A DNA stretch of 19,641 nt, from positions 1-19,641 of IMG/VR virus record IMGVR_UViG_2778261231_000016; one strand, given 5' to 3'. Below the pieces are notes generated by a model that saw only the letters and a list, made by a program, of their open reading frames with translations, searched no databases and had not been told where the DNA came from. How positions within the stretch are numbered: position 1 is the stretch's first letter; the number at the start of each line of letters is the position of its first letter. Position numbers and translations under genes: made by a program. Origin of the DNA: a virus. Taxonomy: Duplodnaviria > Heunggongvirae > Uroviricota > Caudoviricetes. Positions 3,001 through 18,944 of the stretch are shown here, in pieces.

Positions 3001-4581
3001 GTTACGCCAGTTAAACTCGAAGGGGCGGTCCGGATTACCGATAGCGCGACATTGACTCTGGGAAATGGCGTCGATACCACGCTTGCCGACCTGACGGCTG
3101 CCAGCCGGGGCAGTGTCTGGCTTAACAGCAATAATTCCTGTGCAGGTACCAGCAACTGCGAATATAGAGTAAACAGTTTGCTACTCAACGACGGTGATGT
3201 TTATTTGTCAGCACAAACAGCAGCGCCTGCCACAACTAACGGTATCTACAATACGCTGACAACCAATGAACTTTCCGGTAGCGGTAATTTCTACCTGCAT
3301 ACCAACGTTGCAGGCTCCCGGGGCGATCAACTGGTCGTCAACAACAACGCCACTGGTAATTTTAAAATCTTTGTTCAGGATACCGGCGTCAGCCCACAGT
3401 CTGACGACGCGATGACGCTGGTGAAAACAGGGGGAGGGGATGCTTCGTTTACGCTGGGCAATACCGGCGGTTTCGTTGATCTTGGGACCTATGAGTATGT
3501 CCTGAAAAGTGACGGCAACAGCAACTGGAACCTGACCAATGATGTCAAACCCAACCCGGACCCCATCCCAAATCCAAAGCCAGACCCAAAACCCGATCCA
3601 AAGCCAGACCCAAATCCAAAACCAGACCCTACTCCCGATCCAACGCCGACACCCGTTCCGGAGAAACGCATTACGCCTTCTACGGCAGCCGTACTCAATA
3701 TGGCAGCAACATTACCGTTGGTATTTGATGCTGAGCTAAACAGTATTCGCGAGCGGTTGAACATAATGAAAGCGAGTCCACACAACAATAATGTCTGGGG
3801 GGCGACGTATAACACCCGTAATAATGTCACCACCGATGCGGGTGCCGGGTTTGAGCAGACGCTGACCGGAATGACAGTGGGGATCGACAGCCGTAATGAT
3901 ATTCCTGAAGGAATTACCACGCTAGGCGCTTTTATGGGCTATTCCCATTCACATATCGGTTTTGATCGCGGAGGACATGGCAGTGTGGGCAGTTATTCTC
4001 TGGGCGGCTATGCCAGTTGGGAACATGAAAGTGGTTTCTATCTGGACGGTGTCGTGAAGCTGAACCGTTTTAAAAGTAACGTAGCAGGTAAAATGAGCAG
4101 CGGTGGAGCCGCCAATGGCAGTTACCACAGCAACGGGCTGGGCGGTCACATTGAAACCGGGATGCGATTTACCGATGGTAACTGGAACCTGACGCCGTAT
4201 GCATCGTTAACGGGGTTCACCGCTGATAACCCCGAATATCATTTATCCAATGGCATGAAATCGAAATCAGTCGATACCCGCAGTATATATCGTGAACTGG
4301 GCGCAACGCTGAGTTACAACATGCGTCTGGGGAACGGTATGGAAGTTGAGCCGTGGCTGAAGGCGGCTGTGCGCAAAGAATTTGTCGATGATAACCGGGT
4401 GAAAGTGAATAGTGACGGTAATTTCGTCAATTATTTGTCGGGCAGACGTGGAATATACCAGGCAGGTATTAAAGCCTCATTCAGCAGTACGTTAAGCGGG
4501 CATCTTGGGGTGGGGTATAGCCATAGTGCCGGTGTGGAATCCCCGTGGAACGCGGTAGCTGGTGTGAACTGGTCGTTCTGA
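1..4581 (+). CDS. ypjA: AIDA-I/Ag43-type autotransporter adhesin (YpjA-like), 1526 aa
   Basis: Seen: ATG at 1; N-terminal signal-like segment MNRTSPYYCRRSVLSLLISALIYAPPGMAAF; long passenger of degenerate ~19-aa beta-helix repeats (GGxQxVxxGGxAxxTxIxxGG); Pro-rich PNPDPIPNPKPDPKPDP linker; C-terminal beta-barrel translocator ending in aromatic ...GVNWSF. Symbol from memory of the E. coli K-12 smpB-ssrA neighbourhood and the 1526-aa length; not verified by search. Confidence 0.85.
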   Translation: MNRTSPYYCRRSVLSLLISALIYAPPGMAAFTTNVIGVVNDETVDGNQKVDERGTTNNTHIINHGQQNVHGGVSNGSLIESGGYQDIGSHNNFVGQANNTTINGGRQSIHDGGISTGTTIESGNQDVYKGGISNGTTIKGGASRVEGGSANGILIDGGSQIVKVQGHADGTTINKSGSQDVVQGSLATNTTINGGRQYVEQSTVETTTIKNGGEQRVYESRALDTTIEGGTQSLNSKSTAKNTHIYSGGTQIVDNTSTSDVIEVYSGGVLDVSGGTATNVTQHDGAILKTNTNGTTVSGTNSEGAFSIHNHVADNVLLENGGHLDINAYGSANKTIIKDKGTMSVLTNAKADATRIDNGGVMDVAGNATNTIINGGTQNINNYGIATGTNINSGTQNIKSGGKADTTIISSGSRQVVEKDGTAIGSNISAGGSLIVYTGGIAHGVNQETGSALVANTGAGTDIEGYNKLSHFTITGGEANYVVLENTGELTVVAKTSAKNTTIDTGGKLIVQKEAKTDSTRLNNGGVLEVQDGGEAKHVEQQSGGALIASTTSGTLIEGTNSYGDAFYIRNSEAKNVVLENAGSLTVVTGSRAVDTIINANGKMDVYGKDVGTVLNSAGTQTIYASATSDKANIKGGKQTVYGLATEANIESGEQIVDGGSTEKTHINGGTQTVQNYGKAINTDIVSGLQQIMANGTAEGSIINGGSQVVNEGGLAENSVLNDGGTLDVREKGSATGIQQSSQGALVATTRATRVTGTRADGVAFSIEQGAANNILLANGGVLTVESDTSSDKTQVNMGGREIVKTKATATGTTLTGGEQIVEGVANETTINDGGIQTVSANGEAIKTKINEGGTLTVNDNGKATDIVQNSGAALQTSTANGIEISGTHQYGTFSISGNLATNMLLENGGNLLVLAGTEARDSTVGKGGAMQNLGQDSATKVNSGGQYTLGRSKDEFQALARAEDLQVAGGTAIVYAGTLADASVSGATGSLSLMTPRDNVTPVKLEGAVRITDSATLTLGNGVDTTLADLTAASRGSVWLNSNNSCAGTSNCEYRVNSLLLNDGDVYLSAQTAAPATTNGIYNTLTTNELSGSGNFYLHTNVAGSRGDQLVVNNNATGNFKIFVQDTGVSPQSDDAMTLVKTGGGDASFTLGNTGGFVDLGTYEYVLKSDGNSNWNLTNDVKPNPDPIPNPKPDPKPDPKPDPNPKPDPTPDPTPTPVPEKRITPSTAAVLNMAATLPLVFDAELNSIRERLNIMKASPHNNNVWGATYNTRNNVTTDAGAGFEQTLTGMTVGIDSRNDIPEGITTLGAFMGYSHSHIGFDRGGHGSVGSYSLGGYASWEHESGFYLDGVVKLNRFKSNVAGKMSSGGAANGSYHSNGLGGHIETGMRFTDGNWNLTPYASLTGFTADNPEYHLSNGMKSKSVDTRSIYRELGATLSYNMRLGNGMEVEPWLKAAVRKEFVDDNRVKVNSDGNFVNYLSGRRGIYQAGIKASFSSTLSGHLGVGYSHSAGVESPWNAVAGVNWSF
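3551..3660 (+). repeat. Imperfect 24-bp tandem repeats encoding the Pro-rich (P-x-P-K-P-D) linker of the autotransporter
   Basis: Seen: CCAAAGCCAGACCCAAA occurs at 3574-3590 and again at 3598-3614 (24-nt period) within a run of CCA/CCC/CCG-rich codons translating to PNPDPIPNPKPDPKPDPKPDPNPKPDPTPDPTPTP. Confidence 0.75.
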
Positions 4582-4592
4582 CCATCAACGAA

Positions 4593-4614
4593 AAAGCCCA
4601 CATCTGTGGGCTTT
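4593..4614 (+). terminator. Stem-loop downstream of the autotransporter stop (AAAGCCC-loop-GGGCTTT)
   Basis: Seen: inverted repeat AAAGCCCACA / TGTGGGCTTT starting 12 nt after the TGA at 4579-4581. The following T-tract is weak (TTTCATGTT), so intrinsic-terminator function is uncertain. Confidence 0.45.
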
Positions 4615-4741
4615 CATGTTACCAGGAGCCGCGGCTCCTTTGCGTATCCTTTTATGTCTCCTCACCGTCTGGTCGGTGTTTTGCTGAGACTTCTAACTTC
4701 CTGTTTTTGTTGGTGTTGTCCTTACACCGTCCAATCATGAT

Positions 4742-4785
4742 TGGTGGGCTGGCGGGAGTTGAACCCGCGTCCGAAATTCCTACAT
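4742..4785. repeat. att direct repeat: second copy of the ssrA 3' end (island boundary distal to ssrA)
   Basis: Seen: TGGTGGGCTGGCGGGAGTTGAACCCGCGTCCGAAATTCCTACAT at 4742-4785 matches 18582-18626 (the 3' end of ssrA, minus-strand gene) apart from a single missing A after TGGTGG. Identity stops after CCTACAT on both copies. Confidence 0.9.
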
Positions 4786-4980
4786 ACCATTTTTATTATA
4801 GTAAAAACAGTAGATTATGTTTGAAAACAATGTGTTAGTGTTATTTTGTATTTGCTCGTCTTACGCGTTTTTAATGCTCTGCCGCCAAAGTGCCGCCATT
4901 ACATCAAGCATCTAGAATAAAATTAGTTAATAAATTATAATTAATATGCTAATTGTTCTTGCATTCATAAGTGGGACGTG

Positions 4981-6714
4981 ATGAAAGAAAAAAAATTCGT
5001 TAGTGAGCTTTTCCTTGAAAATGGGCAGTTTATTTTAGTCGGTTTGACAGGTCGAACTGGTTCTGGTTGCACAACAACAGCTAATATTCTTGAAAACGAA
5101 AAAACAGTCTTCCCTGATGTAAGTAAATTACAGGGGTTTTACAAGGGATTGGATGTCCATCGTTATAATATAGTTAAAAAATTCGCAGAAAATCACTGGG
5201 AAAATTTTTACTCAATTAAGGTGAGTGACCTAATCTCAGCGTATCTTCTGATGTTAACAGTTGAGGAAGCTTCTGAATTCATTCTATCATCTAATAAATT
5301 TATCAGTAAAGGGCATTTAGATATTGTATTAACTTTTGGTGTATTCTCAGATAATCTCATTTTGACAAGATTTAAAAATGTAATTGAGAATTTGCTTGAT
5401 CATAATAGTGAATTGAAGCTTGATGAAAAAACGATTAATAAATTTATATCAATTTTGAAGTTAGTTAGAAAATTTACTAAAGAATTCAAAGCTGAACTAA
5501 ATGAGATAAACTCAAATTTATATGTTTCAGCCTATCAGTTAGCAGGTAAGTCAATTAGACGTCGTGGGCGTATTGAAGTCGATTTTGAAGATAAAGAGTT
5601 TATGCCTAAATCTGTTTTTCATTTGCCGGAAACTATTAATAGGGTTATTAAATTAATAAGAAAAAGCAAAAGAGATAACGCATTAATTGTCATAGATGCT
5701 ATTAGAAATCCATATGAGGCAAAATTTTTTAAGGATAGATATTCTGCATTTCATTTAATGTCAATAAATGCCCCAGATGAACATCGAACAAACTATTTGC
5801 GGAAACTACATAAGTTTTCAGAAAAGCAGATAGAGGAAATAGATTCTGTAGAGTCAGGTAAAGGTGATAACTCTTACAAACATCTCACCAATCCAAATGT
5901 AACTAAATGTATTGAACTATCAGATATACACATTTTTAACCCAAAAAATGAATTTGATAATGATAATATTTTAAAAGCACAATTAGCGTGGTACATCGCA
6001 CTGATGAAGCATCCTGGTCTGATAACACCTACTGCAATGGAAAGGGTTATGCAAGTTGCGTATACGGTAAAATTAAACTCTGGCTGTATATCTAGACAGG
6101 TGGGAGCTGTAGTAACTGATGGTGATAATTCAATAAAATCAGTTGGTTGGAATGATGTTGCCAACGGTCAGATTCCTTGCTCTATGAGATCTCTAGATGG
6201 CCTAATGAACGATTTTGATGAAAAAACGTACAGTCATTATGAGAGAAATAATAGTTCTTTCAGAATTAAAGCTAATGAGAAACTCTTAAATTTTAGGGCG
6301 ATAGATAAAACTGGTGATATTTATAGAGGCAGGAACTTATCTTATTGTTTTAAAGATATACATAATGATCTTGATAAAGAGAAAAAAGGTAATCAAGTTC
6401 ATACACGTGCATTACATGCTGAGGAAAACGCATTTTTACAACTTGCAAAATATGGTGGTATTGGCGTTCTTGGGGGGAAGTTGTATACAACTGCCAGTCC
6501 CTGTGAGTTGTGTGCGAAAAAAGCTTATCAGTTAGGTATATCTGAAATTGTATTTATTGATCCCTACCCAGGTATAGCTCAAGACCATATTATTAATATA
6601 GGTAGTAAGCCACCAAAGTTAATACAATTTAGAGGCGCAATTGGGAAGTCATATCACCGACTTTATGAGCAAATTATCCCGATAAAAGATGAGTTAGAAT
6701 ATCTCCTTGAGTAG
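4981..6714 (+). CDS. P-loop nucleotide-kinase-like domain fused to cytidine/dCMP-deaminase domain; AvcD/DcdV-like antiphage nucleotide-depletion enzyme (577 aa from ATG 4981; GTG at 4978 is an alternative start)
   Basis: Seen: P-loop G-L-T-G-R-T-G-S-G-C-T-T at 5041-5076 with Cys where the Walker-A Lys is expected; deaminase zinc motifs H-A-E at 6415-6423 and P-C-E-L-C at 6499-6513; very AT-rich compared with flanking phage genes. Established: this two-domain architecture is characteristic of AvcD/DcdV and the dCTP-deaminase defence proteins. Family assignment is from motif recognition only. Confidence 0.7.
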   Translation: MKEKKFVSELFLENGQFILVGLTGRTGSGCTTTANILENEKTVFPDVSKLQGFYKGLDVHRYNIVKKFAENHWENFYSIKVSDLISAYLLMLTVEEASEFILSSNKFISKGHLDIVLTFGVFSDNLILTRFKNVIENLLDHNSELKLDEKTINKFISILKLVRKFTKEFKAELNEINSNLYVSAYQLAGKSIRRRGRIEVDFEDKEFMPKSVFHLPETINRVIKLIRKSKRDNALIVIDAIRNPYEAKFFKDRYSAFHLMSINAPDEHRTNYLRKLHKFSEKQIEEIDSVESGKGDNSYKHLTNPNVTKCIELSDIHIFNPKNEFDNDNILKAQLAWYIALMKHPGLITPTAMERVMQVAYTVKLNSGCISRQVGAVVTDGDNSIKSVGWNDVANGQIPCSMRSLDGLMNDFDEKTYSHYERNNSSFRIKANEKLLNFRAIDKTGDIYRGRNLSYCFKDIHNDLDKEKKGNQVHTRALHAEENAFLQLAKYGGIGVLGGKLYTTASPCELCAKKAYQLGISEIVFIDPYPGIAQDHIINIGSKPPKLIQFRGAIGKSYHRLYEQIIPIKDELEYLLE

Positions 6715-6745
6715 AAATATTATACTCATCCTTCCTGAGGTAAGC

Positions 6746-6779
6746 TTCAAGATGATCAATAAATATTGATCATCTTGAA
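6746..6779. repeat. Perfect 15-bp inverted repeat with 4-nt loop (TTCAAGATGATCAAT aaat ATTGATCATCTTGAA)
   Basis: Seen directly, 32 nt downstream of the deaminase-fusion stop. Contains two GATC sites. No T-tract follows on either strand, so it is not a canonical intrinsic terminator. Confidence 0.8.
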
Positions 6780-7095
6780 AGTTAATTGCAGAGTCAAACT
6801 AGTAGTCAGACTGAAGCTTCGATAAAAAATGTTTTTGTTTTTTTTCATTTTCTAATGACTGTTTTTTATTGGTTTCTTTTTAATGTTGCAATGCTATGCT
6901 TTTCTACTATTTTTGAATGTGGCATCTTTGATGTTTTTATACAACAAAGATGAGGGCCTATAGGTTTTTTTGTGATGTAAAAATTATCTTATTCTATAAA
7001 TAAAACCTAAACTCAGTCTGAAGAGTTAAATGAGAATGGATAACCTGCTGAATATTATATTTGTAAATAGTTTGAGTTTGTTTTCATAAGTTACT

Positions 7096-8112
7096 CTATC
7101 TTAAGTTGCATAAAGGGTTTTTAGTTACCGCATCTTCAAGGTGATCGGGCGAAAAGTGGGCGTAAATCATCGTCATTTTTATATCGGCATGGCCCAGAAT
7201 ATCGCGCAGCACCAGTATGTTTCCGCCATTCATCATAAAATGGCTGGCGAATGTATGACGTAGCACGTGAGTGCATTGGCCCTCTGGCAGCTCGATGCCA
7301 GCTCGCTTTACTGCTCGTTCAAAGGCTTTTCTGCACGGGGTGAATAGCTTCCCTCTGTTCTTGGGGAGTTCGTCATACAGATCTTGAGATATCGGCACGG
7401 TGCGGTTTTTCTTACCCTTCGTCTTGGTATAAGTGATGCGGTATTTAGATAACTGATGGCCCTGCAGGTTTTCAGCTTCACTCCAGCGTGCGCCGGTGGC
7501 CAGGCATATTTTTGCAATCAAAAGCAGACTGGGGTTTTGAGAATCAGCGCAGGCATCTAGCAGACGTTTAATTTCTTCCGAGGTCAGGAACGCCAGTTCC
7601 CCCTCAGCGATTTTAAATGTTGGCAGCCCGGCGAGAGGATTTGGTGCTGACCAGTGGCCTAGTTTTTTCAATGTGCCGAAAACCGATGATAGGTTACGTT
7701 GCTCAAGATTCACCGTGCGTGGTTTTACTGGCGACATTAGTGTGCCGTCTTCGTTACGAACGTCACCTTTTAACCGTGCTTCGCGGTATTTCGTAAAGTC
7801 ACCGGCTGTCAGTTCTGAGGCGATGGGGTCGCCTAGACCATTACAGATAATTCTAAGTTTCGCCATGAGGCGCTTGGGGTCTGCGAGTGTCTGACCATAC
7901 AGGGAATACCAAAGCTCAATTAATTCTGATAGGCGTCGCCGATCATCCTTTTCACCCAACCACGGTTTTTTATTCACTTCTTCCATTGTGAAGCTTTCAA
8001 AAGCAATGGCTTCGCCTTTCGTAGCAAATTGCTTACGCACGCGCTTACCATTGCGTCCATTGGGATAGCACTCACACAACCATTTTCCGTTCGGCTGTTT
8101 TCTGATGGTCAT
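7096..8112 (-). CDS. int: P2/186-type tyrosine integrase (338 aa)
   Basis: Seen: N-terminus MTIRKQPNGKWLCECYPNGRNGKRVRKQF resembles the P2 Int N-terminus; C-terminal catalytic region has ...ATGARWSEA..., HVLRHTFASHF and ...IYAHF (tyrosine recombinase R/H-x-x-R/Y signature). Start abuts the cI stop. Confidence 0.95.
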   Translation of the reverse strand: MTIRKQPNGKWLCECYPNGRNGKRVRKQFATKGEAIAFESFTMEEVNKKPWLGEKDDRRRLSELIELWYSLYGQTLADPKRLMAKLRIICNGLGDPIASELTAGDFTKYREARLKGDVRNEDGTLMSPVKPRTVNLEQRNLSSVFGTLKKLGHWSAPNPLAGLPTFKIAEGELAFLTSEEIKRLLDACADSQNPSLLLIAKICLATGARWSEAENLQGHQLSKYRITYTKTKGKKNRTVPISQDLYDELPKNRGKLFTPCRKAFERAVKRAGIELPEGQCTHVLRHTFASHFMMNGGNILVLRDILGHADIKMTMIYAHFSPDHLEDAVTKNPLCNLR

Positions 8113-8113
8113 A

Positions 8114-8746
8114 TCAAAGGCTCTTAATGATTTTCAGTGCGCGGCCTACTACCTCAATGTCATCTAGGCCACATTCAAACGATGAATCATCCTGATGCAC
8201 TACTAATTTGTTTCCCGGAAGTCGAGTCAATTTAACAATGCTTTTTATCCCGTCAATATCGACTAACCACATACCATTTACTGGTGGTGTTTGGTTGCGA
8301 TCTATTAAATAAGAATCACCAGAAGTAGTCACCAGCAGTAGGTTGCTTGAGTCTGAGGGGAGTATGCTGCTATCAATGATTGCTTTTCCAGCATCGACCA
8401 ATAAACCACCGTTGAGAGTCGCCTTGTCAATTTCAGGAGATACTAGTTTAGAAAGAGGTACAACCTTGCTGGAGTTCACGGAATTGATATTTTTTTTAGG
8501 TTCAATGTTTGGACCTGGCTCCCCCTGTCCGGTGGTTAGCCACAGTAAAGAAACTCCTGTTTCCAAGGCGCACTGAATCACCCACTCTGCAGGAAAACTA
8601 TCTCTTAAGTATCTGTTTGCCATGGTGCTTTTTGATGCGCCTAAGTGATCGCAAAGTTGCTGTCTGGACTTGAAATCATAGGCTGCCATTAGTCTATGGA
8701 TAGCCTCTCTTCCCCCTGTATTCTCTCCAACCTTTACCTGTATCAT
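8114..8746 (-). CDS. cI: CI-type immunity repressor (186 CI-like, 210 aa)
   Basis: Seen: position immediately upstream of int on the same strand; HTH-like N-terminal region (KSRQQLCDHLGASKSTMANRYLRD); RBS AGGA 7 nt before ATG at 8746; faces an operator-containing intergenic region. Homology judged by eye. Confidence 0.8.
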   Translation of the reverse strand: MIQVKVGENTGGREAIHRLMAAYDFKSRQQLCDHLGASKSTMANRYLRDSFPAEWVIQCALETGVSLLWLTTGQGEPGPNIEPKKNINSVNSSKVVPLSKLVSPEIDKATLNGGLLVDAGKAIIDSSILPSDSSNLLLVTTSGDSYLIDRNQTPPVNGMWLVDIDGIKSIVKLTRLPGNKLVVHQDDSSFECGLDDIEVVGRALKIIKSL

Positions 8747-8758
8747 TTTTTAATCCTG

Positions 8759-8810: not shown

Positions 8811-8865
8811 AAATAAAACGAGATAAAACGACGTAAACCAAACCTTAATCGGGAGATACTGCACT

Positions 8866-9108
8866 ATGAGCACTGATATTTCAATTCGTGTACCAAAAGA
8901 GATGGCTACGCCTGCAGAGTTCGCGGAATGGGAAGGTATCTCCCGCGGCTCTGTGTATCAAAAAATTCATCATGGTCAGCTTGCTAAATACATGGTCAAG
9001 AAAGAAAAAAACAAAGGCCGCGTAAGCCTGCGTTATTTAATGTACAAAACCGATCAGGTCCGTGAATCCCTCGGTCATTCCAACTTCCGCGTCATTGTTG
9101 GTAAGTAA
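8866..9108 (+). CDS. Small HTH protein in the apl/cox position (putative excisionase / lytic-switch regulator, 80 aa)
   Basis: Seen: first gene downstream of the rightward promoter and divergent from cI; excisionase-like HTH segment TPAEFAEWEGISRGSVYQKIHHGQL; RBS GGGAGA upstream. Assignment by position and motif only. Confidence 0.45.
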   Translation: MSTDISIRVPKEMATPAEFAEWEGISRGSVYQKIHHGQLAKYMVKKEKNKGRVSLRYLMYKTDQVRESLGHSNFRVIVGK

Positions 9109-9140
9109 GTTCAATTATGAGAACTTTCTAAGGGGGTAGC

Positions 9141-9485
9141 ATGTTTGATTATAAGATTTCCAAACACCCGCATTTTGATGAAGCCTGTAGAGCTTTTGCA
9201 CTTCGTCACAATATGGCGAAGCTGGCAGAACGTTCAGGAATGAATGTCCAGACTCTGCGAAACAAACTCAACCCAGATCAACCGCATCAGCTCAATGCGC
9301 CAGATATCTGGCTACTTACCGATCTGACGGAAGATTCAACGCTGGTAGACGGTTTTCTGGCACAGATTCACTGCCTGCCATGTGTACCGATTAATGAGGT
9401 GGCAAAAGAGAAACTGCCACATTACGTCATGAGTGCAACCGCAGAGATCGGGCGTGTTGCTGCAGGTGCGGTACCGGTTTTCTAA
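9141..9485 (+). CDS. cII: Phage CII-family regulatory protein, apparently C-terminally truncated (114 aa)
   Basis: Seen: RBS AAGGGGG before ATG; N-terminal region MFDYKISKHPHFDEACRAFALRHNMAKLAERSGMNVQTLRNKLNP matches my recollection of 186-type CII proteins. Those are ~165-170 aa by memory, and here the ORF stops right at the junction with the tail-fibre stub. Confidence 0.65.
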   Translation: MFDYKISKHPHFDEACRAFALRHNMAKLAERSGMNVQTLRNKLNPDQPHQLNAPDIWLLTDLTEDSTLVDGFLAQIHCLPCVPINEVAKEKLPHYVMSATAEIGRVAAGAVPVF

Positions 9486-9871
9486 AATATAACGGAGCGT
9501 CATTCAACAAGGCAATGTATCCCAAACTTGCACAAATTTTCCCGTCAGGAGTATTACTTGATTTGCGCGGCGTATTTATTCGAGGCTGGGATGATGGAAA
9601 AGGGATTGATGCCGGGCGTGCAATACTGACACAGCAGCAGGATGCCCAGCAAAATATCACCGGCATGGTTTCTGATATGACAGTCGGCGTAAATGCTGAC
9701 GGAACAGGTGCATTTAGTATGGTCGATTTAACTACATCAGGCATTTCGGCAGGTGCACTAAATTCTTTTTATCAAAAGCATATTTATCTGGATTCCTCCA
9801 GAGTGGTCAGAACGGCAACTGAAAACCGTCCGGTAAATATCGCATTCAACTACATTGTGAGGGCTGCATAA
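9486..9871 (+). pseudogene. Tail-fibre (H-like) C-terminal remnant, 5'-truncated
   Basis: Seen: frame is open from just after the cII stop; translation contains the tail-fibre collar-like motif ...NGASFNKAMYPKLAQIF...LRGVFIRGWDDGKGIDAGRA...; no N-terminal fibre domain or proper start; stop overlaps the G start (TAATG at 9869-9873). Confidence 0.65.
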
Positions 9872-10458
9872 TGATGAACGCAGATTTAGCCATTTTAGAG
9901 AACGGTATTGCGACAACCGCCGGATGGATAACGATATATAACTATTCGGCGGTTACAGGTGAATATCTTGACAGCAACAGTGAATACATTCCAGAAGGTG
10001 TTGGATTGCCTGCGCTGGCAACAGATATTGAACCGCCGAACAGACCGGACGGTCAGGCTGTTATCTGGCAGGGTTCGTGGATACTGATGGATGACTGGCG
10101 GGGTGAAACGGTTTATTCCATTTTTGATGGTTCTGCCAGTATCGTGGATTACCTCGGGGCAATCGCAGAGGGATATACACAACAGAAACCCGCAACCCGT
10201 TTTGATAAATGGGATGGTAAGCAGTGGGTGACTGATACTGACGCGCGAAATACGGAAGCTGTTGCAGTTTCTACGCAACAGAAAGCTGCATTGCTGGCTG
10301 AAGCCACCGCGACCATAGCACCGCTTCAGGATGCAAAAGACGGAGGTTATATTGATGATGCTGATATTCCGATGTTGATTTCTTGGCAAAAATATCGCTA
10401 CGCGCTGACTAAAGTTAATCCTAAAACTCCTGTTTGGCCCAGCAAACCAAGTGTATAA
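9871..10458 (+). CDS. Tail-fibre assembly protein (P2 G-like, 195 aa)
   Basis: Seen: start overlaps the upstream fibre stop as in P2 H/G; 195-aa product in the expected position before the G-FI accessory slot. Similarity to gpG-type chaperones judged by eye. Confidence 0.8.
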   Translation: MMNADLAILENGIATTAGWITIYNYSAVTGEYLDSNSEYIPEGVGLPALATDIEPPNRPDGQAVIWQGSWILMDDWRGETVYSIFDGSASIVDYLGAIAEGYTQQKPATRFDKWDGKQWVTDTDARNTEAVAVSTQQKAALLAEATATIAPLQDAKDGGYIDDADIPMLISWQKYRYALTKVNPKTPVWPSKPSV

Positions 10459-10470
10459 ATGGTAATATAA

Positions 10471-10505
10471 AAGGCAGTTCACTCTATGATGAACTGCCTT
10501 TTATA
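10471..10505. terminator. Bidirectional stem-loop between convergent G and the 110-aa cargo ORF
   Basis: Seen: AAGGCAGTTCA (10471-10481), 8-nt loop, TGAACTGCCTT (10490-10500), followed by TTTAT on the plus strand and TTATATT on the minus strand. Confidence 0.6.
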
Positions 10506-10524
10506 ACGAGCATCAAAATATAGA

Positions 10525-10857
10525 TTATTTACCAAACAAAGAAACTATGTTGACTGCGACTGTGGTGATATCAGTCGCAGGTTTTAGCCATTTACTGATT
10601 TCATACTTGTCAAGGATTGAAGGGTACTCACTTGCTTCAACTGTTTTCAATTGATGTGCCGCTTGATTAATGTTTTCAAGTGGCGCGCCGGGAATGAAAT
10701 TTTCTTCTAGAAAGCTTTTTTGGCTTTCATATATTGATATCGCCTCGCCATTTCCAGAAAAAGTAGTTTCTTTAAAAACTAACTCTGTACACTCTGGTGC
10801 TCGAACTCCAATCGTATTATTAATAAAAGTACAACCCTCGAAAGTATGCTTACCCAT
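10525..10857 (-). CDS. Hypothetical protein (110 aa), AT-rich cargo in the G-FI (P2 Z/fun-equivalent) slot
   Basis: Seen: ATG at 10855-10857, stop followed by the stem-loop above; opposite orientation to all flanking late genes; markedly lower GC than neighbours; no recognisable motif, no signal peptide or obvious TM segment. Confidence 0.6.
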   Translation of the reverse strand: MGKHTFEGCTFINNTIGVRAPECTELVFKETTFSGNGEAISIYESQKSFLEENFIPGAPLENINQAAHQLKTVEASEYPSILDKYEISKWLKPATDITTVAVNIVSLFGK

Positions 10858-11032
10858 TTTTAGATTTTACCTTGGTTGCGTAGTGAAACCATTAGTTTAC
10901 ATCTTTCACCAGTAGCAATAAAAATGATGGTTAAGAATTGAGACGAGTATCACTGAACTATACATGCTGACCAAAGGAACCTTTCAAAGAATTTAAATGC
11001 GCTGCTAACGATCATTTTTCGTCAATATCAAT

Positions 11033-11050
11033 TGTGCTATTTCCCACACA
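11033..11050 (+). promoter_or_regulatory. Candidate Ogr-dependent late-promoter element (TGT-N12-ACA) upstream of the FI operon
   Basis: Seen: TGTGCTATTTCCCACACA at 11033-11050, ~75 nt upstream of the FI ATG. Established: P2 late promoters carry a TGT-N12-ACA dyad centred near -55 recognised by Ogr. Single motif match, so moderate confidence. Confidence 0.45.
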
Positions 11051-11124
11051 TAGCCCACTACGTGCGCCGCGTGCATATCAACCAGAACATAGGCACACCC
11101 CCTGTAAACCGGAGAGACTGCCTT

Positions 11125-12297
11125 ATGGCTCAGGATTACCACCACGGGGTGCGCGTTGTTGAAATCAACGAGGGCACCCGATCCATTACCACGGTGAGCA
11201 CCGCCATCGTGGGCATGGTCTGCACCGGCGATGATGCTGATGCGTCCATGTTTCCCCTCAATAAGCCGGTCCTGCTGACCGATGTGCTGACTGCCAGCGG
11301 TAAAGCGGGCGAGTCCGGCACGCTGGCCCGTTCGCTGGATGCGATTGCAGACCAGGCTAAACCCGTGACCGTCGTTGTGCGCGTGGCACAGGGCGAAACC
11401 GAAGCGGAAACAACCTCCAACATTATCGGCGGCGTAACTGCTGACGGTAAAAAAACGGGTATGAAAGCGCTGCTTTCGGCGCAGTCGCAGTTGGGCGTCA
11501 AGCCGCGCATTCTCGGCGTGCCGGGGCATGACACGCAAGCGGTTGCCACTGAGCTGCTGAGCGTGGCGCAGAGCCTGCGCGGGTTTGCCTACCTGTCCGC
11601 TTATGGCTGCAAAACGGTAGAAGAAGCGATTGCCTACCGTGACAATTTCAGCCAGCGCGAGGGGATGCTGATCTGGCCTGACTTCATCAACTTTGACACC
11701 GTGCTGAATGCCGACGCGACGGCTTACGCCTCCGCCCGTGCGCTCGGCCTGCGCGCCAAAATTGACGAGCAGACCGGCTGGCACAAAACCCTGTCCAACG
11801 TGGGCGTGAACGGCGTTACCGGCATTTCCGCTGATGTGTTCTGGGATCTGCAGGACCCGGCAACCGATGCGGGACTACTGAACCAGAACGACGTCACCAC
11901 GCTTATCCGCAAAGATGGCTTCCGCTTCTGGGGTTCCCGCTGCCTCAGTGACGATCCTCTGTTTGCCTTTGAGAACTACACCCGCACGGCGCAGGTGCTG
12001 GCTGACACCATCGCAGAAGCGCACATGTGGGCGGTGGATGGCGTACTCAACCCGTCGCTGGCCCGTGACATTATCGAAGGTATTCGGGCCAAGCTGTGCA
12101 GCCTGAAAACACAGGGCTACATCATCGGCGCAGACTGCTGGCTGGATGAGTCGGTGAACGATAAAGACTCCCTGAAAGCCGGGAAACTCACTATCGACTA
12201 CGACTACACGCCGGTGCCGCCGCTTGAAAACCTGATGCTGCGCCAGCGCATCACCGATCAGTACCTGCTGGATTTCTCCAGCCAGGTCAGCGCGTAA
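11125..12297 (+). CDS. Contractile tail sheath protein (P2 FI homologue, 390 aa)
   Basis: Seen: RBS GGAGAG 8 nt upstream; N-terminus [35 protein letters not shown] closely matches P2 FI (MSDYHHGVQVLEINEGTR...). The ORF-track start at 11032 is an upstream in-frame extension I do not believe. Confidence 0.95.
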
Positions 12298-12306
12298 GGG
12301 GACACC

Positions 12307-12822
12307 ATGGCTTTACCACGCAAGTTAAAACACCTGAACCTGTTCAACGACGGGAACAACTGGCAGGGGATCGTTGAGTCTCTGACCCTGCCGAAATTCA
12401 CCCGCAAGTTTGAGAAGTATCGCGGCGGCGGTATGCCGGGCGCGGTGGACGTGGACATGGGGCTGGATGACGGCGCACTGGACACGGAATTTTCAATCGG
12501 CGGCACCGAACTGCTGTTATTTAAGCAGATGGGCAAGGCCACGGTTGACGGAATCCAGCTGCGTTTCACCGGCTCCATTCAGCGTGACGATACCGGCGAA
12601 GTGCAGGCCGTTGAGCTGGTTGTGCGCGGGCGTCATAAAGAAGTGGATTCCGGCGAGTGGAAAACCGGCGAGAGCAGCACCACCAAAGTCAGCAGCACCA
12701 ACAGCTACGCGAAGCTGACCATTAACGGCGAAGTGCTCTATGAGGTCGATCTGGTCAACATGGTTGAAATCGTTGACGGCGTGGACCTGATGGAAGAACA
12801 CCGTAACGCCCTCGGCCTCTGA
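12307..12822 (+). CDS. Tail tube protein (P2 FII homologue, 171 aa)
   Basis: Seen: immediately follows FI with RBS AAGGGG; size and position as P2 FII. Confidence 0.93.
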   Translation: MALPRKLKHLNLFNDGNNWQGIVESLTLPKFTRKFEKYRGGGMPGAVDVDMGLDDGALDTEFSIGGTELLLFKQMGKATVDGIQLRFTGSIQRDDTGEVQAVELVVRGRHKEVDSGEWKTGESSTTKVSSTNSYAKLTINGEVLYEVDLVNMVEIVDGVDLMEEHRNALGL

Positions 12823-12876
12823 TTAACCTTAACGGCGCGGGAAGCCGCGCCAGTATTTCATTAACAGGAAACGAAC

Positions 12877-13179
12877 ATGAGCGACAAGCTGACTGAAAAG
12901 ACCGTAAAACTGGATACCCCCATCATGCGCGGTAAAACTGAAATTACCGAAATTGTGCTGCGCAAGCCGCAGTCCGGCGCACTGCGTGGCACCCGTCTGC
13001 AGGCCATTATGGATATGGACGTGGGCGCGATGATGACTGTGATCCCGCGAATCTCCACTCCGACGCTGACCGCGCAGGAAATGGCAGAGCTGGACCCCGC
13101 CGATCTGACAGCAATGGCTGTAGAGGTGGTGACTTTTTTGTTGCCGAAGTCGGTGCTTGCCGATTTGCCGACAACCTGA
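12877..13179 (+). CDS. Tail assembly chaperone (P2 E homologue, zero-frame product, 100 aa)
   Basis: Seen: RBS AGGAAA; position between the tube and tape-measure genes; contains the slippery heptamer TTTTTTG (13135-13141) near its 3' end. Confidence 0.85.
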   Translation: MSDKLTEKTVKLDTPIMRGKTEITEIVLRKPQSGALRGTRLQAIMDMDVGAMMTVIPRISTPTLTAQEMAELDPADLTAMAVEVVTFLLPKSVLADLPTT

Positions 13180-13313
13180 CGGTTGATGATCTGGTGGCAG
13201 ATATTGCCACCATCTTTCACTGGTCGCCGTCCATCACTGACGTTATGCCGCTGACTGAGGTGCTGGAATGGCGGCATAAGGCAATTCAGCGAAGCGGGGC
13301 CAGCGATGAGTGA
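12877..13313 (+). CDS. E+E' fusion made by programmed -1 frameshift at TTTTTTG (about 13135-13141); E' frame ends at TGA 13311-13313
   Basis: Seen: the -1 frame after the slippery site is open to 13313 and overlaps the tape-measure start (13306). Established: the P2 FETUD operon makes E+E' by -1 frameshifting at this kind of site. The exact shift codon is not determinable by eye. Confidence 0.65.
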
Positions 13314-16083
13314 TAATAACCTGCGTCTGCAGGTGGTTTTGGGGGCGGTTGACAAGTTAACCCGCCCTTTTAAAAATGCCCAGGCTGGCTCAAAAGAGCT
13401 GGCAGCGGCAATCCGGCAGACCCGCGACCAGCTTAAGCAACTGAGCGATGCGGGAGGCCAGTTAAAATCCTTCGACCAGCTATCGCAAAGCGTGCGCCGT
13501 ACAGGTGCAGAGCTGGATCAGACGAGACTGCGCGCGCAGATGATGACGCGCGAAATGTCATCTTTGGAATCCCCAACAAAAAAACAAACTCAGGCGCTTG
13601 AAGCTCAGTGGCGTGCTGTTGCACGTCTTGAGCAAAAGCAGAAACAGGAAACAAACCAGCTATCTGCAGTAAGGGGGGAGCTTTACAGGCTGGGGTTATC
13701 TGCTGGGGGCGGAGCGCGGGAAACCGCCAGAATTACCCGTGAAACTGAGAAGTATAACCAGAAGCTGGCAGAGCAGGAGCGCAGGCTGCGCGAGGTTGGC
13801 GAGCGTCAGCGAAAGCTCAACGCTATCAAAGCCAAGGCTGAAAAGACCCGTGAGTTAAGGAACTCTCTGGCAGGTAATGGTGCAGGGGAGATGGCGGCTG
13901 GGGTAGCTACTGGCATGACGTTATTGGCTCCAGTAAAAGCCTATTCTGAATCTGAAAATGCCGCTAATCAGCTCGCCGGTTCAATGATGGGGCCGGGCGG
14001 AAAGGTCGCACCTGAATTTGAGAAAATTAACCAGCTGGCGGTAGCGCTTGGAGACAGGCTGCCGGGAACCACTGCAGATTTCCAGAACATGATGACAATG
14101 CTGCGTCGTCAGGGGATGTCAGCACAGGTCATTCTTGGCGGGCTGGGGGAATCGGCGGCTTATCTGGGGGTGCAGTTGCAGATGGCTCCCACTGCTGCGG
14201 CTGAGTTTGCCGCAAAATTGCAGGATGCAACACAGACCTCAGAAAAAGACATGATGAGCCTGATGGATCTGATCCAGAAGGGTTTTTATGCCGGTGTTGA
14301 CTCAGGGAATATGCTGCAGGGATTTTCTAATATCAGCAGCGCCATGAGCATTATTAATCAAAAAGGGATTGAAGCAGCTAAAACTTTTGCTCCGTTGCTG
14401 GTGATGGCTGATCAGAGCGGGATGGCTGGTGAGTCTGCAGGTAATGCTTACCGAAAAATTTTCCAGGCAGCGCTGGATTCAAAAAATATTCAGTCAGTCA
14501 ACGACGATCTGAAAGGCACCGGTATCAACTTCAATTTTTCCAATGGTAAAGGTGGATTCGGCGGGCTGGAAAATATGTACGCCCAGCTGGAAAAGCTTAG
14601 TAAGCTCAACGATGAAACCCGGATGGCAACGATTAAGGATCTGTTCGGTAATGATGCGGAAGTCATGAAAGTCCTTAACACCATGATTGAAAAAGGTATT
14701 AATGGATATCGTGAAACTACCGCCAAACTTGAAAATCAGGCTTCACTGCGGGAACGCGTCGATGCGTCCCTGAATACCCTGGGTAATAAATGGGAAGCCG
14801 CTACAGGTTCCTTTACCAATGCTATGGCTAGTATCGGTGAAACAGTTGCCCCAACATTAAAGAAGCTGGCTGACTGGTTGGGTGAACTGGCTTCGCGTCT
14901 GGATGGTTTTGTTAAACGACACCCACAATTGACCTCAGCGCTGTTTAAGCTGGCAGCTGGCTTTGCCATTGTTGCCACCGCCGCTGGGGTTGTTTCACTG
15001 GCGCTGGCGTCCGTGTTAGGGCCGATGGCAGTAGTGCGAATGAGCGCAGGGGTGATGGAGCTAAAATTTTCATCTGCATTTGGTCTTATTGGGAAAGCAA
15101 TCAGTTCTGTTGGCAAGTCAGTTATATGGCTGGGCCGATTGATGTTTGCAAATCCTATACTGGCTGTCATTGGGCTGATCGCCGCTGGTGCTATTTATAT
15201 CTGGCAGAACTGGGACACGCTTGGACCAAAATTCAAGGCAATGTGGGATGCCGTATGTAATGCCACAAGTACGGCATGGGATTGGATTAAAGAGAAGGCC
15301 AGCGCCGCATGGGAGGGGATTAAGTCACTGTTCTTTAATTATACCTTGCCGGGATTAATAGCTAAAAATTGGGATGCAATAAAAACTGGCGTTTCTGAAG
15401 CGTGGGCCAATATCAGACAATCTATTAGTGATAAATGGAATTCGATCCTGGCTGATGTTGCCGCGCTTCCTGCGAAGTTTCAGGACATGGGCAGCGCCAT
15501 TATTGACAGCATTCTCGATGGAATTAATGCCAAATGGGAGACACTCAAAAGCAAGCTTTCCTCAGTCACAGATTATCTGCCTGACTGGATGACCGGAAAT
15601 AATAAAACACAAGACAAAGCACAGGTGCAGGTGGTTGGTGGAGCAGCGGCTGCTGCCGTTCCGTTTGCCGGGATGTATGACAGTGGTGGGATTATTCCGC
15701 GCGGTCAGTTCGGTATTGTTGGAGAGAACGGCCCTGAAATTGTGAACGGCCCCGCAAATGTGACCAGCAGGCGGCGCACTGCCGCGCTGGCTTCCGTCGT
15801 TGCAGGTGTCATGGGCGTAGCGGCAGCGCCTGCAGAGGCTGCTCCACTACATCCTTACAGTCTGCCTACTGTGGCATATAAACAAAGCCAGCCTGCGAAA
15901 TCTGCCAGCGCGCCGCCAGTGATGCACTTTGAAACTCACGCGCCGATCACTATCTATGCTCAGCCAGGGCAGAGTGCACATGATATTGCCCGTGAAGTTG
16001 CCCGACAGCTTGACGAACGCGAGCGCAAGACCAGGGCTAAAGCACGCAGTAATTTCAGTGATCAAGGGGGATATGAATCATGA
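13306..16083 (+). CDS. Tail tape measure protein (P2 T homologue, 925 aa)
   Basis: Seen: long coiled-coil-rich N-terminal half (Q/E/R/K/A-rich), hydrophobic central segments; located between E/E' and U; stop overlaps the U start. Confidence 0.95.
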   Translation: MSDNNLRLQVVLGAVDKLTRPFKNAQAGSKELAAAIRQTRDQLKQLSDAGGQLKSFDQLSQSVRRTGAELDQTRLRAQMMTREMSSLESPTKKQTQALEAQWRAVARLEQKQKQETNQLSAVRGELYRLGLSAGGGARETARITRETEKYNQKLAEQERRLREVGERQRKLNAIKAKAEKTRELRNSLAGNGAGEMAAGVATGMTLLAPVKAYSESENAANQLAGSMMGPGGKVAPEFEKINQLAVALGDRLPGTTADFQNMMTMLRRQGMSAQVILGGLGESAAYLGVQLQMAPTAAAEFAAKLQDATQTSEKDMMSLMDLIQKGFYAGVDSGNMLQGFSNISSAMSIINQKGIEAAKTFAPLLVMADQSGMAGESAGNAYRKIFQAALDSKNIQSVNDDLKGTGINFNFSNGKGGFGGLENMYAQLEKLSKLNDETRMATIKDLFGNDAEVMKVLNTMIEKGINGYRETTAKLENQASLRERVDASLNTLGNKWEAATGSFTNAMASIGETVAPTLKKLADWLGELASRLDGFVKRHPQLTSALFKLAAGFAIVATAAGVVSLALASVLGPMAVVRMSAGVMELKFSSAFGLIGKAISSVGKSVIWLGRLMFANPILAVIGLIAAGAIYIWQNWDTLGPKFKAMWDAVCNATSTAWDWIKEKASAAWEGIKSLFFNYTLPGLIAKNWDAIKTGVSEAWANIRQSISDKWNSILADVAALPAKFQDMGSAIIDSILDGINAKWETLKSKLSSVTDYLPDWMTGNNKTQDKAQVQVVGGAAAAAVPFAGMYDSGGIIPRGQFGIVGENGPEIVNGPANVTSRRRTAALASVVAGVMGVAAAPAEAAPLHPYSLPTVAYKQSQPAKSASAPPVMHFETHAPITIYAQPGQSAHDIAREVARQLDERERKTRAKARSNFSDQGGYES

Positions 16084-16565
16084 TGATGGTGCTGGGGTTA
16101 TATGTCTTTATGCTGCGTACAGTGCCATATCAGGAGCTGCAGTATCAGCGAAGCTGGCGACACGCCGCCAACAGTCGGGTGAACCGGCGACCATCAACGC
16201 AGTTTCTTGGCCCGGGTAATGACTCGCTGACCTTATCTGGCGTACTGCTGCCGGAAGTCACCGGGGGCAGGCTGTCATTGCTCGCGCTGGAGCAAATGGC
16301 AGAGCTGGGCAAAGCATGGCCTCTGATTGAGGGAAGCGGGACCATTTACGGCATGTTTGTGATCGAGAGCCTGAGTCAGACAAAAACAGAGTTTTTTGAA
16401 AGCGGAATGCCTCGCCGTATTGAGTTTACGCTGACCCTGAAAAGGGTTGATGAGTCGCTGTCTGATATGTTCGGCAGTCTCAGCGATCAGCTCAGTAACC
16501 TGCAGGACTCTGCAACGTCTGCGATAGGTAATATTAAAAATACGGTTGGAGGGTTGCTGCAGTGA
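16080..16565 (+). CDS. Tail protein U homologue (161 aa)
   Basis: Seen: N-terminus MMMVLGLYVFMLRTVPYQELQ...LSLLALEQMAELGKAWPLIEGSGTIYGMFVIESL closely resembles P2 gpU; ATGATGATG start overlaps the T stop. Confidence 0.9.
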   Translation: MMMVLGLYVFMLRTVPYQELQYQRSWRHAANSRVNRRPSTQFLGPGNDSLTLSGVLLPEVTGGRLSLLALEQMAELGKAWPLIEGSGTIYGMFVIESLSQTKTEFFESGMPRRIEFTLTLKRVDESLSDMFGSLSDQLSNLQDSATSAIGNIKNTVGGLLQ

Positions 16566-17662
16566 ATTTTAGCTCTGATCTTTTTGACCTGAACAGCAAA
16601 AGCCCGGCTTTCAGTATCGTCATTGAAGGTAAGGACGTGACGACCGTGCTGGATACCCGCCTGATGAGTCTGACGCTGACGGATAACCGGGGCTTTGAAG
16701 CGGACCAGCTTGATCTGGAGCTGGACGACGCCGACGGGCTGATCGCCCTGCCGCGACGTGGGGCAGTGATTCAGCTAGCGCTGGGCTGGAAAGGCCAGCC
16801 GCTTTTCCCTAAAGGGGCTTTTACCGTGGATGAAATTGAACACAGCGGTGCCCCTGACCGGCTGACCATCAGGGCGCGTAGCGCAGATTTCCGTGAAACC
16901 CTCAATACACGGCGCGAAAAATCATGGCATCAGACAACGGTGGGGGAGGTGGTAAAGGAAATAGCCGCCCGGCATAACCTCAAAATGGCGCTGGGCAAAG
17001 ACCTGACGGATAAGGCGCTGGATCATCTGGACCAGACCAATGAAAGCGATGCAAGTTTTCTGATGAAACTGGCGAGACAGTATGGGGCGATTGCTTCCGT
17101 TAAGGACGGGAATCTGCTGTTTATCCGGCAGGGACAGGGAAGAACGGCGAGCGGCAAGCCGCTGCCGGTTATCACCATCACGCGCAAAGCCGGTGACGGT
17201 CATCGGTTCACCCTTGCTGATCGTGGTGCCTATACCGGTGTTATTGCCAGCTGGTTGCATACGCGTGAACCCAGGAAAAAAGAGACAACCAGTGTTAAGC
17301 GTCGTCGAAAGAAAACCACCACACCCAAAGAGCCGGAAGCAAAACAGGGCGATTATCTGGTGGGAACGGATGAAAACGTGCTGGTTCTTAATCGTACCTA
17401 CGCCAACCGGAGAAATGCAGAGCGCGCAGCAAAAATGCAGTGGGAACGTCTGCAGCGTGGGGTTGCTTCATTTTCCCTGCAGCTCGCTGAGGGGCGTGCT
17501 GATCTCTATACGGAAATGCCGGTGAAGGTTACAGGGTTTAAGCAGCCGATCGATGATGCAGAATGGACCATTACCACCCTGGCGCATTCTGTCAGCCCGG
17601 ATAATGGATTTACAACCAGCATGGAGCTTGAAGTAAAGATTGATGATTTAGAAATGGAATAA
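16562..17662 (+). CDS. Tail protein D homologue (late control gene D-type, 366 aa)
   Basis: Seen: GTG start with RBS GGAGGG 8 nt upstream, overlapping the U stop; size and position as P2 gpD. Confidence 0.92.
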   Translation: MNFSSDLFDLNSKSPAFSIVIEGKDVTTVLDTRLMSLTLTDNRGFEADQLDLELDDADGLIALPRRGAVIQLALGWKGQPLFPKGAFTVDEIEHSGAPDRLTIRARSADFRETLNTRREKSWHQTTVGEVVKEIAARHNLKMALGKDLTDKALDHLDQTNESDASFLMKLARQYGAIASVKDGNLLFIRQGQGRTASGKPLPVITITRKAGDGHRFTLADRGAYTGVIASWLHTREPRKKETTSVKRRRKKTTTPKEPEAKQGDYLVGTDENVLVLNRTYANRRNAERAAKMQWERLQRGVASFSLQLAEGRADLYTEMPVKVTGFKQPIDDAEWTITTLAHSVSPDNGFTTSMELEVKIDDLEME

Positions 17663-17729
17663 ATAAGTTCTTAATATTGATTCTTTGTGTATCATTATTG
17701 AGATTTTAATGGTGACGGAGAATAAAAAA

Positions 17730-17948
17730 ATGATGAATTGCCCAAAGTGTGGACATGCGGCGCACACCCGGAGCAGCTTTCAGGTTACTGATAGCACGAA
17801 GGAGCGTTACTGCCAGTGCCAGAACATTAATTGCGGCAGCACATTTGTCACCCATGAAACGGTTGTACGATTTATCGTTACCCCGACAATAATCAATAAT
17901 GCCCCGCCGCACCCTACGCCGGGTGGTCAAGGGCACATGAATTTTTAA
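17730..17948 (+). CDS. ogr: Ogr late-gene transcriptional activator (C4 zinc finger, 72 aa)
   Basis: Seen: MMNCPKCGHAAHTRSSFQVTDSTKERYCQCQNINC... matches P2 Ogr (MFHCPLCQHAAHARTSRYITDTTKERYHQCQNVNC...) in length and Cys spacing; RBS GGAG 9 nt upstream of ATG 17730. The ORF-track start at 17685 is a TTG extension. Confidence 0.93.
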   Translation: MMNCPKCGHAAHTRSSFQVTDSTKERYCQCQNINCGSTFVTHETVVRFIVTPTIINNAPPHPTPGGQGHMNF

Positions 17949-17954
17949 AACAAG

Positions 17955-18579: not shown

Positions 18580-18581
18580 TT

Positions 18582-18944
18582 TGGTGGAGCTGGCGGGAGT
18601 TGAACCCGCGTCCGAAATTCCTACATCCTCGGTACTACATGCTTAGTCAGTCTTTACATTCGCTTGCCAGCTGCGGACGGACACGCCACTAACAAACTAG
18701 CCTGATTAAGTTTTAACGCTTCAACCCCAGGCAGGGCTTCCACGCGATCTCTTTTGGGTTTGACCTCTCTTGATCCCCGTCCTAAGAGCGGAGGCTAGGG
18801 AGAGAGGGCTCTAAGCAGGTTATTAAGCTGCTAAAGCGTAGTTTTCGTCGTTTGCGACTATTTTTTGCGGCTTTTTACGAGGCCAACCGCCCCTCGGCAT
18901 GCACCTTGGGTTTCGCAAATCCCGTCGAATCCAGAATCAGCCCC
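18582..18944 (-). ncRNA. ssrA: tmRNA (SsrA), 363 nt
   Basis: Seen: reverse complement begins GGGGCTGATTCTGGATTCGACGGGATTTGCG... and ends ...GGGTTCAACTCCCGCCAGCTCCACCA; contains the tag reading frame GCAAACGACGAAAACTACGCTTTAGCAGCTTAA (ANDENYALAA stop). Matches E. coli ssrA from memory. Confidence 0.97.

Follow-up and report, generated by a model that had tools for sequence, protein, structure and literature searches.

Locus and features

The window analysed here is the whole of IMG/VR virus record IMGVR_UViG_2778261231_000016 (Duplodnaviria; Heunggongvirae; Uroviricota; Caudoviricetes), positions 1 to 19,641, a stretch of 19,641 nucleotides (nt). It runs from Escherichia coli ypjA (1-4581) through a P2/186-like prophage remnant to ssrA (18582-18944, minus strand) and smpB. 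The open reading frame (ORF) at 4981-6714, which lies between the att site and the integrase gene (int) of the remnant, is the subject of this report. It very probably encodes a functional single-protein anti-phage deoxycytidine triphosphate (dCTP) deaminase of the family of Tal et al. 2022 and AvcD, carried as accessory prophage cargo. The gene and its motifs are as follows.

4981..6714, plus strand: putative anti-phage dCTP deaminase, 577 amino acids (aa); kinase-like domain at about aa 1-345, deaminase domain at about aa 350-577; full-length match to phrog_8118, 1310 bits
5041..5079, plus strand: non-canonical P-loop GLTGRTGSGCTTT, G21-T33, including G29 and C30; unchanged across 46 close homologues
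6415..6423, plus strand: HAE, H479-A480-E481, with His479 as zinc ligand and Glu481 as catalytic residue; invariant in 149 of 150 representatives and aligned with the active site of T4 deoxycytidine monophosphate (dCMP) deaminase
6499..6513, plus strand: PCELC, P507-C508-E509-L510-C511, with Cys508 and Cys511 as zinc ligands, from alignments to homologues

The ORF translates without a stop into 577 aa. RefSeq takes the ATG as the start; a GTG in frame at 4978 could serve instead. An earlier sequence-only reading of this DNA had picked out the P-loop, HAE and PCELC motifs, and translation and mapping recovered all three at the positions listed. The same reading had called the ORF far more AT-rich than the flanking phage genes, which is the case: the G+C content is 0.31-0.36 over 5001-7000, while int has 0.45-0.48 and most tail genes have 0.50-0.61. 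Purifying selection acts on the deaminase alleles, among which dN/dS is 0.08-0.16 (0.155 for the comparison with the nearest sub-allele).

Family membership and homologues

The NCBIfam equivalog NF041025, "anti-phage dCTP deaminase", matched over its entire length (model positions 1-437 of 437) with 425.6 bits and E=2.1e-127, above the cutoff of 400; the E. coli AW1.7 enzyme itself scores 449 bits on this model. The PADLOC dCTPase model matched with E=1.3e-145 and 484.8 bits. Compared with AW1.7 WP_045268677, the protein shows 72% identity and 85% positives end to end over 577 aa, and it is assigned on its sequence to the AW1.7-type branch of the family. Together with the predicted folds described below, these matches bear out the proposal of the sequence-only reading that the gene encodes a kinase-deaminase fusion of a nucleotide-depleting defence family. 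Members of the defence family are single genes of more than 350 aa in defence islands or mobile elements; the present gene, at 577 aa, is the sole cargo gene of the prophage slot.

In Pfam the deaminase domain alone was recognised (PF00383, dCMP_cyt_deam_1, E=1.6e-14, aa 353-525), so the C-terminal domain belongs to the cytidine/dCMP-deaminase family, as had been predicted. The model for ComEB, TIGR02571, gave 36.4 bits against a cutoff of 219.45, and no RibD model matched the protein in the NCBIfam profile search; a housekeeping deaminase is not indicated. In PHROGs the family is phrog_8118, with the function given as "unknown", and the dCMP-deaminase families are secondary matches.

RefSeq applies the name "anti-phage dCTP deaminase" to alleles 97-99.8% identical at the DNA level in 20 of 5,426 complete E. 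coli genomes, where the copies sit within otherwise intact prophages. More diverged matches occur in 24 further genomes of this set. Other E. coli members of the family are located on an integrative and conjugative element (LF82), a serine-recombinase island (LR-29-1) and a tRNA-Phe island (AW1.7). The family as a whole is large, with more than 4,700 clusters at 90% identity (8,000 candidates scored) and 447 clusters at 50% identity with E <= 1e-30. Many of the distant representatives are 760-860 aa long and consist of the kinase-deaminase core plus an extra 200-280 aa or so at one or the other end.

The sequenced-phage collection holds no close homologue; the best matches reach 25-27% identity. 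Similarity to the T-even Cd proteins is about 30% and limited to aa 357-529. The nearest relative among sequenced, named phages is Burkholderia phage phiE094 (37.7 kb), in which a 'cytidine and deoxycytidylate deaminase' at 32378-33223 is 27% identical to aa 237-529, an alignment that extends into part of the kinase-like domain.

Conserved residues and predicted structure

Key residues were surveyed in 150 representatives, each 35-56% identical to the query, of which 139 were aligned at the position of the Walker-A lysine. This position is occupied by Cys in 131 of the 139 and by Ser in two, and by Lys in none. The zinc and catalytic residues, C369 and C400 are invariant or nearly so across the 150. 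G29, C30, C369 and C400 are all present here and correspond to G29, C30, C370 and C401 of AW1.7, in which the mutations G29A/C30A and C370A/C401A each abolished both phage defence and dCTP depletion (Tal et al., 10.1101/2021.04.26.441389). In the Vibrio cholerae enzyme DcdV the Walker A motif carries S52, for which an S52K mutant was made, and V. parahaemolyticus AvcD was inactivated by S49K together with E376A (10.1101/2021.03.31.437871; PMC10511110). Since Lys is absent from all 139 representatives and Ser stands in the Vibrio enzymes, the non-lysine P-loop is a family signature, and the statement in the sequence-only reading that AvcD/DcdV P-loops also deviate at this position was correct. 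Genuine phosphotransfer is doubtful because the Walker-A lysine is missing, and the kinase-like domain probably serves nucleotide binding or regulation instead.

An AlphaFold2 model built from a 46-sequence alignment (pLDDT 77.8, pTM 0.73) consists of two halves, the N-terminal one resembling nucleoside monophosphate (NMP) kinases and the C-terminal one dCMP deaminases, the two folds expected of the fusion. A sequence search for a solved structure of the full fusion found none.

The att-int cargo slot

The features that delimit the deaminase gene within the element are as follows.

4741..4786: attL, a 46-nt copy of the ssrA 3' end (1-nt indel) and direct repeat of 18581-18626, from local alignment within the window; weak tmRNA match, minus strand
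4787..4900: attP arm, common to all 186-like ssrA prophages whatever their cargo, from a seven-way junction alignment
6715..7095: AT-rich non-coding spacer, particular to this allele class; no ORF above 55 aa
6746..6779: perfect 15-bp hairpin with a 4-nt loop, 32 nt past the deaminase stop; fold z -4.6 (plus) and -3.2 (minus); kept in the 97% sub-allele
7096..8112, minus strand: tyrosine integrase of P2/186 type, convergent with the deaminase gene; Pfam Int_N and Phage_integrase
18581..18626: attR, the 3' end of the intact ssrA gene, from the repeat alignment
18582-18944, minus strand: ssrA, intact; Rfam tmRNA, 295.8 bits

By their alignment the 46-nt repeats are attL and attR of an ssrA-integrating element; the 44-nt stretch 4742-4785 matches the ssrA 3' end in 5,426 of the 5,426 E. 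coli genomes. For the seven-way alignment from att to int, the sequences of five prophages were taken from complete genomes; L010, with an empty slot, and L009, with a GapS1 gene, were included. All prophages aligned had in common the att core and the arm of about 115 nt, and two hits without any deaminase match the window at 4742-4900. The arm ends in a tandem repeat, TGCCGCCA (4880-4887) AAG TGCCGCCA (4891-4898), whose two copies we infer to be Int arm-type sites. In strain 2824 (L010:4001-4163) the int stop codon directly follows the arm and the slot is empty. The shared arm and this empty slot place the deaminase module at about 4901-7095. The gene is thus cargo between int and att, as first read, and it occupies the place where a 186/P2-type phage normally has nothing but attP beside int, the arrangement seen in strain 2824. 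Other prophages carry other cargo: a gene annotated as GapS1 family protein in ETEC4089 (L009:4178-5698, minus strand), and a 308-aa protein with a weak PADLOC match to the 2TM 'Effector' in CFSAN051542 (L003:6472-7401, minus strand).

At least five deaminase allele classes were found in the slot by an IMG/VR scan and tblastn, with 100/97, 77, 75, 74 and 70% aa identity. The Int proteins beside them are 92-100% identical, and several cI types occur. Synonymous sites are near saturation in both genes, with synonymous divergence (pS) of 0.71-0.79 for the deaminase and 0.50-0.68 for int. Allele swapping, to which the 70-77% identity of the alleles beside 92-100% identical Int proteins might point, was considered and rejected, as the int synonymous sites are also near saturation; long residence with co-divergence is for the same reason as possible as allele replacement.

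The 381-nt spacer 6715-7095 is confined to the 20 genomes that carry this allele; in the other deaminase allele classes the gene ends about 10-30 nt from int. It is 92% identical between sub-alleles, compared with 97.5% for the coding sequence, which is about the synonymous rate (pS 0.074). No RNA family matched it in Rfam, and it looks neutral except for the hairpin at 6746-6779. The hairpin has no U-tract; it may act as a terminator or barrier where the convergent transcripts of the deaminase gene and int meet. One of its arms, CTTCAAGATGATC, is similar to 3' coding sequence of int, GCATCTTCAAGGTGATC (about 7121-7137), a likeness possibly left over from an earlier junction of deaminase and int. 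In some strains (NCTC9038, L002:11789-13836; strain 2824, L010:2624-3817) the stretch from ypjA to the 186-like prophage contains a further degraded integrase and IS3/ISEc52 debris, which is evidence of serial occupation of the ssrA site.

Proposed function

AW1.7 defends against diverse phages by depletion of dCTP (Tal et al. 2022, 'Bacteria deplete deoxynucleotides to defend against bacteriophage infection', 10.1101/2021.04.26.441389), and dCTP depletion together with phage protection has been demonstrated for the AW1.7, U09 and AvcD homologues (10.1101/2021.04.26.441389; 10.1101/2021.03.31.437871; PMC10511110). Substrate, trigger and phage protection are transferred from these homologues to the present enzyme by analogy. 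The gene would be expressed constitutively from a short promoter of its own and the enzyme would remain silent in healthy cells, as suggested by the 72%-identical AW1.7. When a lytic phage turns off host transcription, the enzyme would become active and convert dCTP (and dCMP) to deoxyuridine triphosphate (dUTP) and monophosphate (dUMP); the deoxycytidine pool would collapse and replication of the phage DNA would stall. Transcription shutoff is the trigger proposed for AW1.7-type enzymes too (10.1101/2021.04.26.441389; PMC10511110). The chemistry is predicted to be performed by the C-terminal zinc deaminase through H479, E481, C508 and C511, while the N-terminal NMP-kinase-like domain would be needed for activity and is probably nucleotide-binding or regulatory.

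Several points weigh against this assignment of function. The protein differs from AW1.7, the tested relative, at 28% of its residues. The prophage is defective, so that the gene may be expressed in a different context than in an intact lysogen. The AvcI RNA antitoxin of the tested AvcID loci has no obvious counterpart at this locus, and a stricter consensus promoter scan called no plus-strand promoter 5' of the deaminase ATG.

Upstream region and control of the enzyme

Because the consensus scan called none, the deaminase promoter was assigned by eye and by conservation across alleles only.

4913..4941, plus strand: putative deaminase promoter, TAGAAT-N17-TATAAT, with a leader of about 32 nt

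The hexamers have the same positions and spacing in allele classes L018 (TAGAAC/TATAAT) and L022/L025 (TAGAAT/TATACT).

AvcID is a type III toxin-antitoxin pair whose antitoxin RNA is encoded in the operon of the toxin gene, directly on its 5' side (10.1101/2021.03.31.437871; PMC10511110). The present gene could be the toxin half of such a pair, with a labile AvcI/DifV-like RNA, encoded directly 5' of the ORF and possibly overlapping the attP arm or the mRNA start, that binds the enzyme and inhibits it until transcription stops. The protein has the domains of an AvcID toxin, P-loop kinase (PLK)-like and deoxycytidylate deaminase (DCD), with a non-lysine Walker A (Cys30), and the transcription-shutoff trigger is shared. 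The homologues of V. cholerae, V. parahaemolyticus, Proteus mirabilis and enterotoxigenic E. coli (ETEC) H10407 each have an RNA inhibitor in cis on the 5' side. As these inhibitor RNAs lack sequence conservation between species, missing similarity is no exclusion, and 195 nt separate the att core from the ATG.

Only about 82 nt of this distance is cargo-specific DNA (82-119 nt over all five slot allele classes); the remainder is attP arm, which is also present in prophages without the deaminase. By comparison, 152-174 nt of AvcI/DifV are functional in V. cholerae, and the V. parahaemolyticus transcript is just under 300 nt long (10.1101/2021.03.31.437871; PMC10511110). The upstream region shows no folding in excess of shuffled sequence (z -0.24 and +0.53). 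No AvcI-like RNA was found in it by Rfam search at gathering and E-value thresholds or by cross-allele alignment, and it has no similarity to the 524-nt upstream region of AW1.7. Between sub-alleles it is 90% identical, and so diverges about as fast as synonymous sites (pS 0.074). With so little cargo-specific upstream DNA, the sequence evidence leans against an AvcI-type RNA antitoxin here; a toxin-antitoxin pair at this locus is unlikely. A tentative proposal, less likely than not, is that the slot alleles work without an AvcI-type RNA in cis, with control exerted by the protein itself (e.g., a Cys-P-loop kinase-like domain that senses the status of nucleotides or transcription) or by a factor acting in trans.

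The prophage remnant

The genes of the element beyond int are as follows.

8114..8746, minus strand: CI repressor of 186 type; Pfam Phage_CI_repr and Phage_CI_C
8866..9108, plus strand: Apl/Cox-like excisionase-repressor; phrog_6912 and phrog_575
9141..9485, plus strand: truncated cII, 111 of 169 codons, with the deletion or chimera junction at 9473/9474; Pfam Phage_CP76
9515..17948, plus strand: tail module, with tail-fibre 3' fragment, tail-fibre assembly, sheath, tube, E, tape measure, U, D and ogr; Pfam and PHROGs

The int-cI/apl-cII switch, the P2-type tail genes with ogr and the att repeats are those of a P2/186-like prophage. Identity of 99.8% to the intact prophages of VG888-46E9 and NCTC9038 ends at 9473, inside cII. 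Replication gene A and the portal, terminase, capsid, lysis and baseplate genes, all present in these intact relatives, are absent from the element, which is on this account a remnant, as the sequence-only reading had called it. The defence gene has stayed intact in a prophage whose replication and head genes are lost.

At the junction cII is fused to the tail-fibre 3' fragment (ORF 9515-9871). The tail module has a G+C content of 0.55-0.61. Its identity is 93-95% to prophages located at ssrA in E. coli ET650 and LR882997 and about 78% to Klebsiella P2-like phages. The tail half comes from another P2-like lineage and the remnant is therefore chimeric, which suggests a deletion between tandem or recombinant ssrA prophages. 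Positions 9474-11000 of the window had no megablast match among the 5,426 complete E. coli genomes.

Two further ORFs lie at accessory positions. A 188-aa ORF at 17975-18544 (minus strand), between ogr and attR, marks a second att-proximal accessory position. It matches phrog_2561 'DNA ligase' (E=2.4e-68), resembling the C-terminal region of NAD-dependent LigA, and weakly the PADLOC candidate PDC-S48 (5.9e-07), with no Pfam match; the corresponding position in ET650 is occupied by a shorter hypothetical gene. A 109-aa ORF at 10525-10857 (minus strand), with a local G+C content of 0.36, lies between the tail-fibre assembly and sheath genes, the P2 Z/fun accessory position; it has a sub-threshold Beta_helix match only and no PADLOC or PHROG match.

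The state of the element raises the question whether the gene is an inert relic, an intact-looking ORF in a dead prophage that is unexpressed or inactive. The prophage is a 13.9-kb remnant and the deaminase promoter is no more than predicted. The ORF, though, is 99.7-99.8% identical to copies in intact prophages and keeps every catalytic and P-loop residue, dN/dS of 0.155 against the nearest sub-allele indicates constraint, and the region upstream through the att site is the same as in the intact prophages, so that inertness is improbable. Hardly credible is a phage nucleotide-metabolism enzyme (a T4 Cd-like dCMP deaminase, or one like ComEB or RibD) that serves the prophage's own DNA synthesis and not defence: the deaminase domain does align with T4 and cyanophage dCMP deaminases and has the secondary PHROGs matches mentioned above, but similarity to T-even Cd stays at about 30% and within the deaminase domain, ComEB falls far short of its cutoff (36 bits against 219), the defence family is characterised by just such a 345-aa kinase-like domain and G-C P-loop, and the slot is variable and sometimes empty, the gene not being found in sequenced P2/186 phages.

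Comparison with known systems

The closest characterised counterpart is the AW1.7 enzyme (576 aa compared with 577 aa here), which has an identical P-loop, LVGLTGRTGSGCTTTANILE, with the essential G29 and C30, the same HAE and PCELC motifs, and essential cysteines C370 and C401 that are C369 and C400 here, and belongs to the same NCBIfam equivalog. Most of the differing residues fall within a helical insert of the kinase-like domain (about aa 90-160) and a deaminase-domain loop (about aa 420-470). The vehicles are different: the AW1.7 gene lies on a tRNA-Phe island that has two integrases, downstream of a 524-nt intergenic region, and the present gene lies in the att-int slot of a 186-like ssrA prophage, with about 82 nt of upstream DNA of its own.

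The AvcID systems of V. cholerae VSP-1, V. parahaemolyticus, P. mirabilis and ETEC H10407 were likened by architecture and description. They share the kinase-like N-terminus, the dCMP-deaminase C-terminus, the replacement of the Walker-A lysine (Ser in the Vibrio enzymes, Cys here) and carriage on mobile elements. In AvcD both domains are required, and deamination of dCTP and dCMP is triggered by transcription shutoff (Severin/Hsueh et al., 10.1101/2021.03.31.437871; PMC10511110). The V. cholerae protein VC0175 has 532 aa compared with 577 aa here, ETEC H10407 gave no DNA-level match to the deaminase gene, and the cis RNA antitoxin of AvcID is not evident here. T4 Cd (1vq2), S-TIM5 (4p9c), PBCV-1 bi-DCD (7fh4) and ComEB resemble the C-terminal region of about 200 aa in fold and zinc-site motifs, but are only about 25-30% identical and do not have the 345-aa kinase-like domain.

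The int-att interval has been described as a minor defence hotspot of P2-like prophages, with 3% of P2 systems (bioRxiv 10.64898/2026.02.27.708500); the classical P2 hotspots lie elsewhere (Rousset et al. 2022, PMC9122126). As in that hotspot, the content of the slot differs among related prophages. Specific to the present case is that the att site is the ssrA 3' end, and the ssrA/tmRNA locus is E. coli defence-island hotspot #9 (PMC10121019). The text of neither P2 hotspot paper mentions a dCTP deaminase (bioRxiv 10.64898/2026.02.27.708500; PMC9122126).

The gene, the family, the mechanism and the odd P-loop are all already published, and the gene has been catalogued and named by the NCBI pipeline. 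So are ssrA as an integration hotspot and the cargo slot between int and att in P2-like prophages. The value of the finding beyond annotation is small, and that a dCTP deaminase has not been listed at the int-att slot is an inventory detail. The natural series of slot states (no cargo, a GapS1 family protein, a different gene, and five diverged alleles of the deaminase) lends itself to studies of cargo turnover. The very short private upstream region of the deaminase alleles in the slot makes them suitable for a test of whether AvcI-type RNA control is family-wide, and if they do work without such an RNA, they would be a self-contained sensor-effector variant of the AvcD family.

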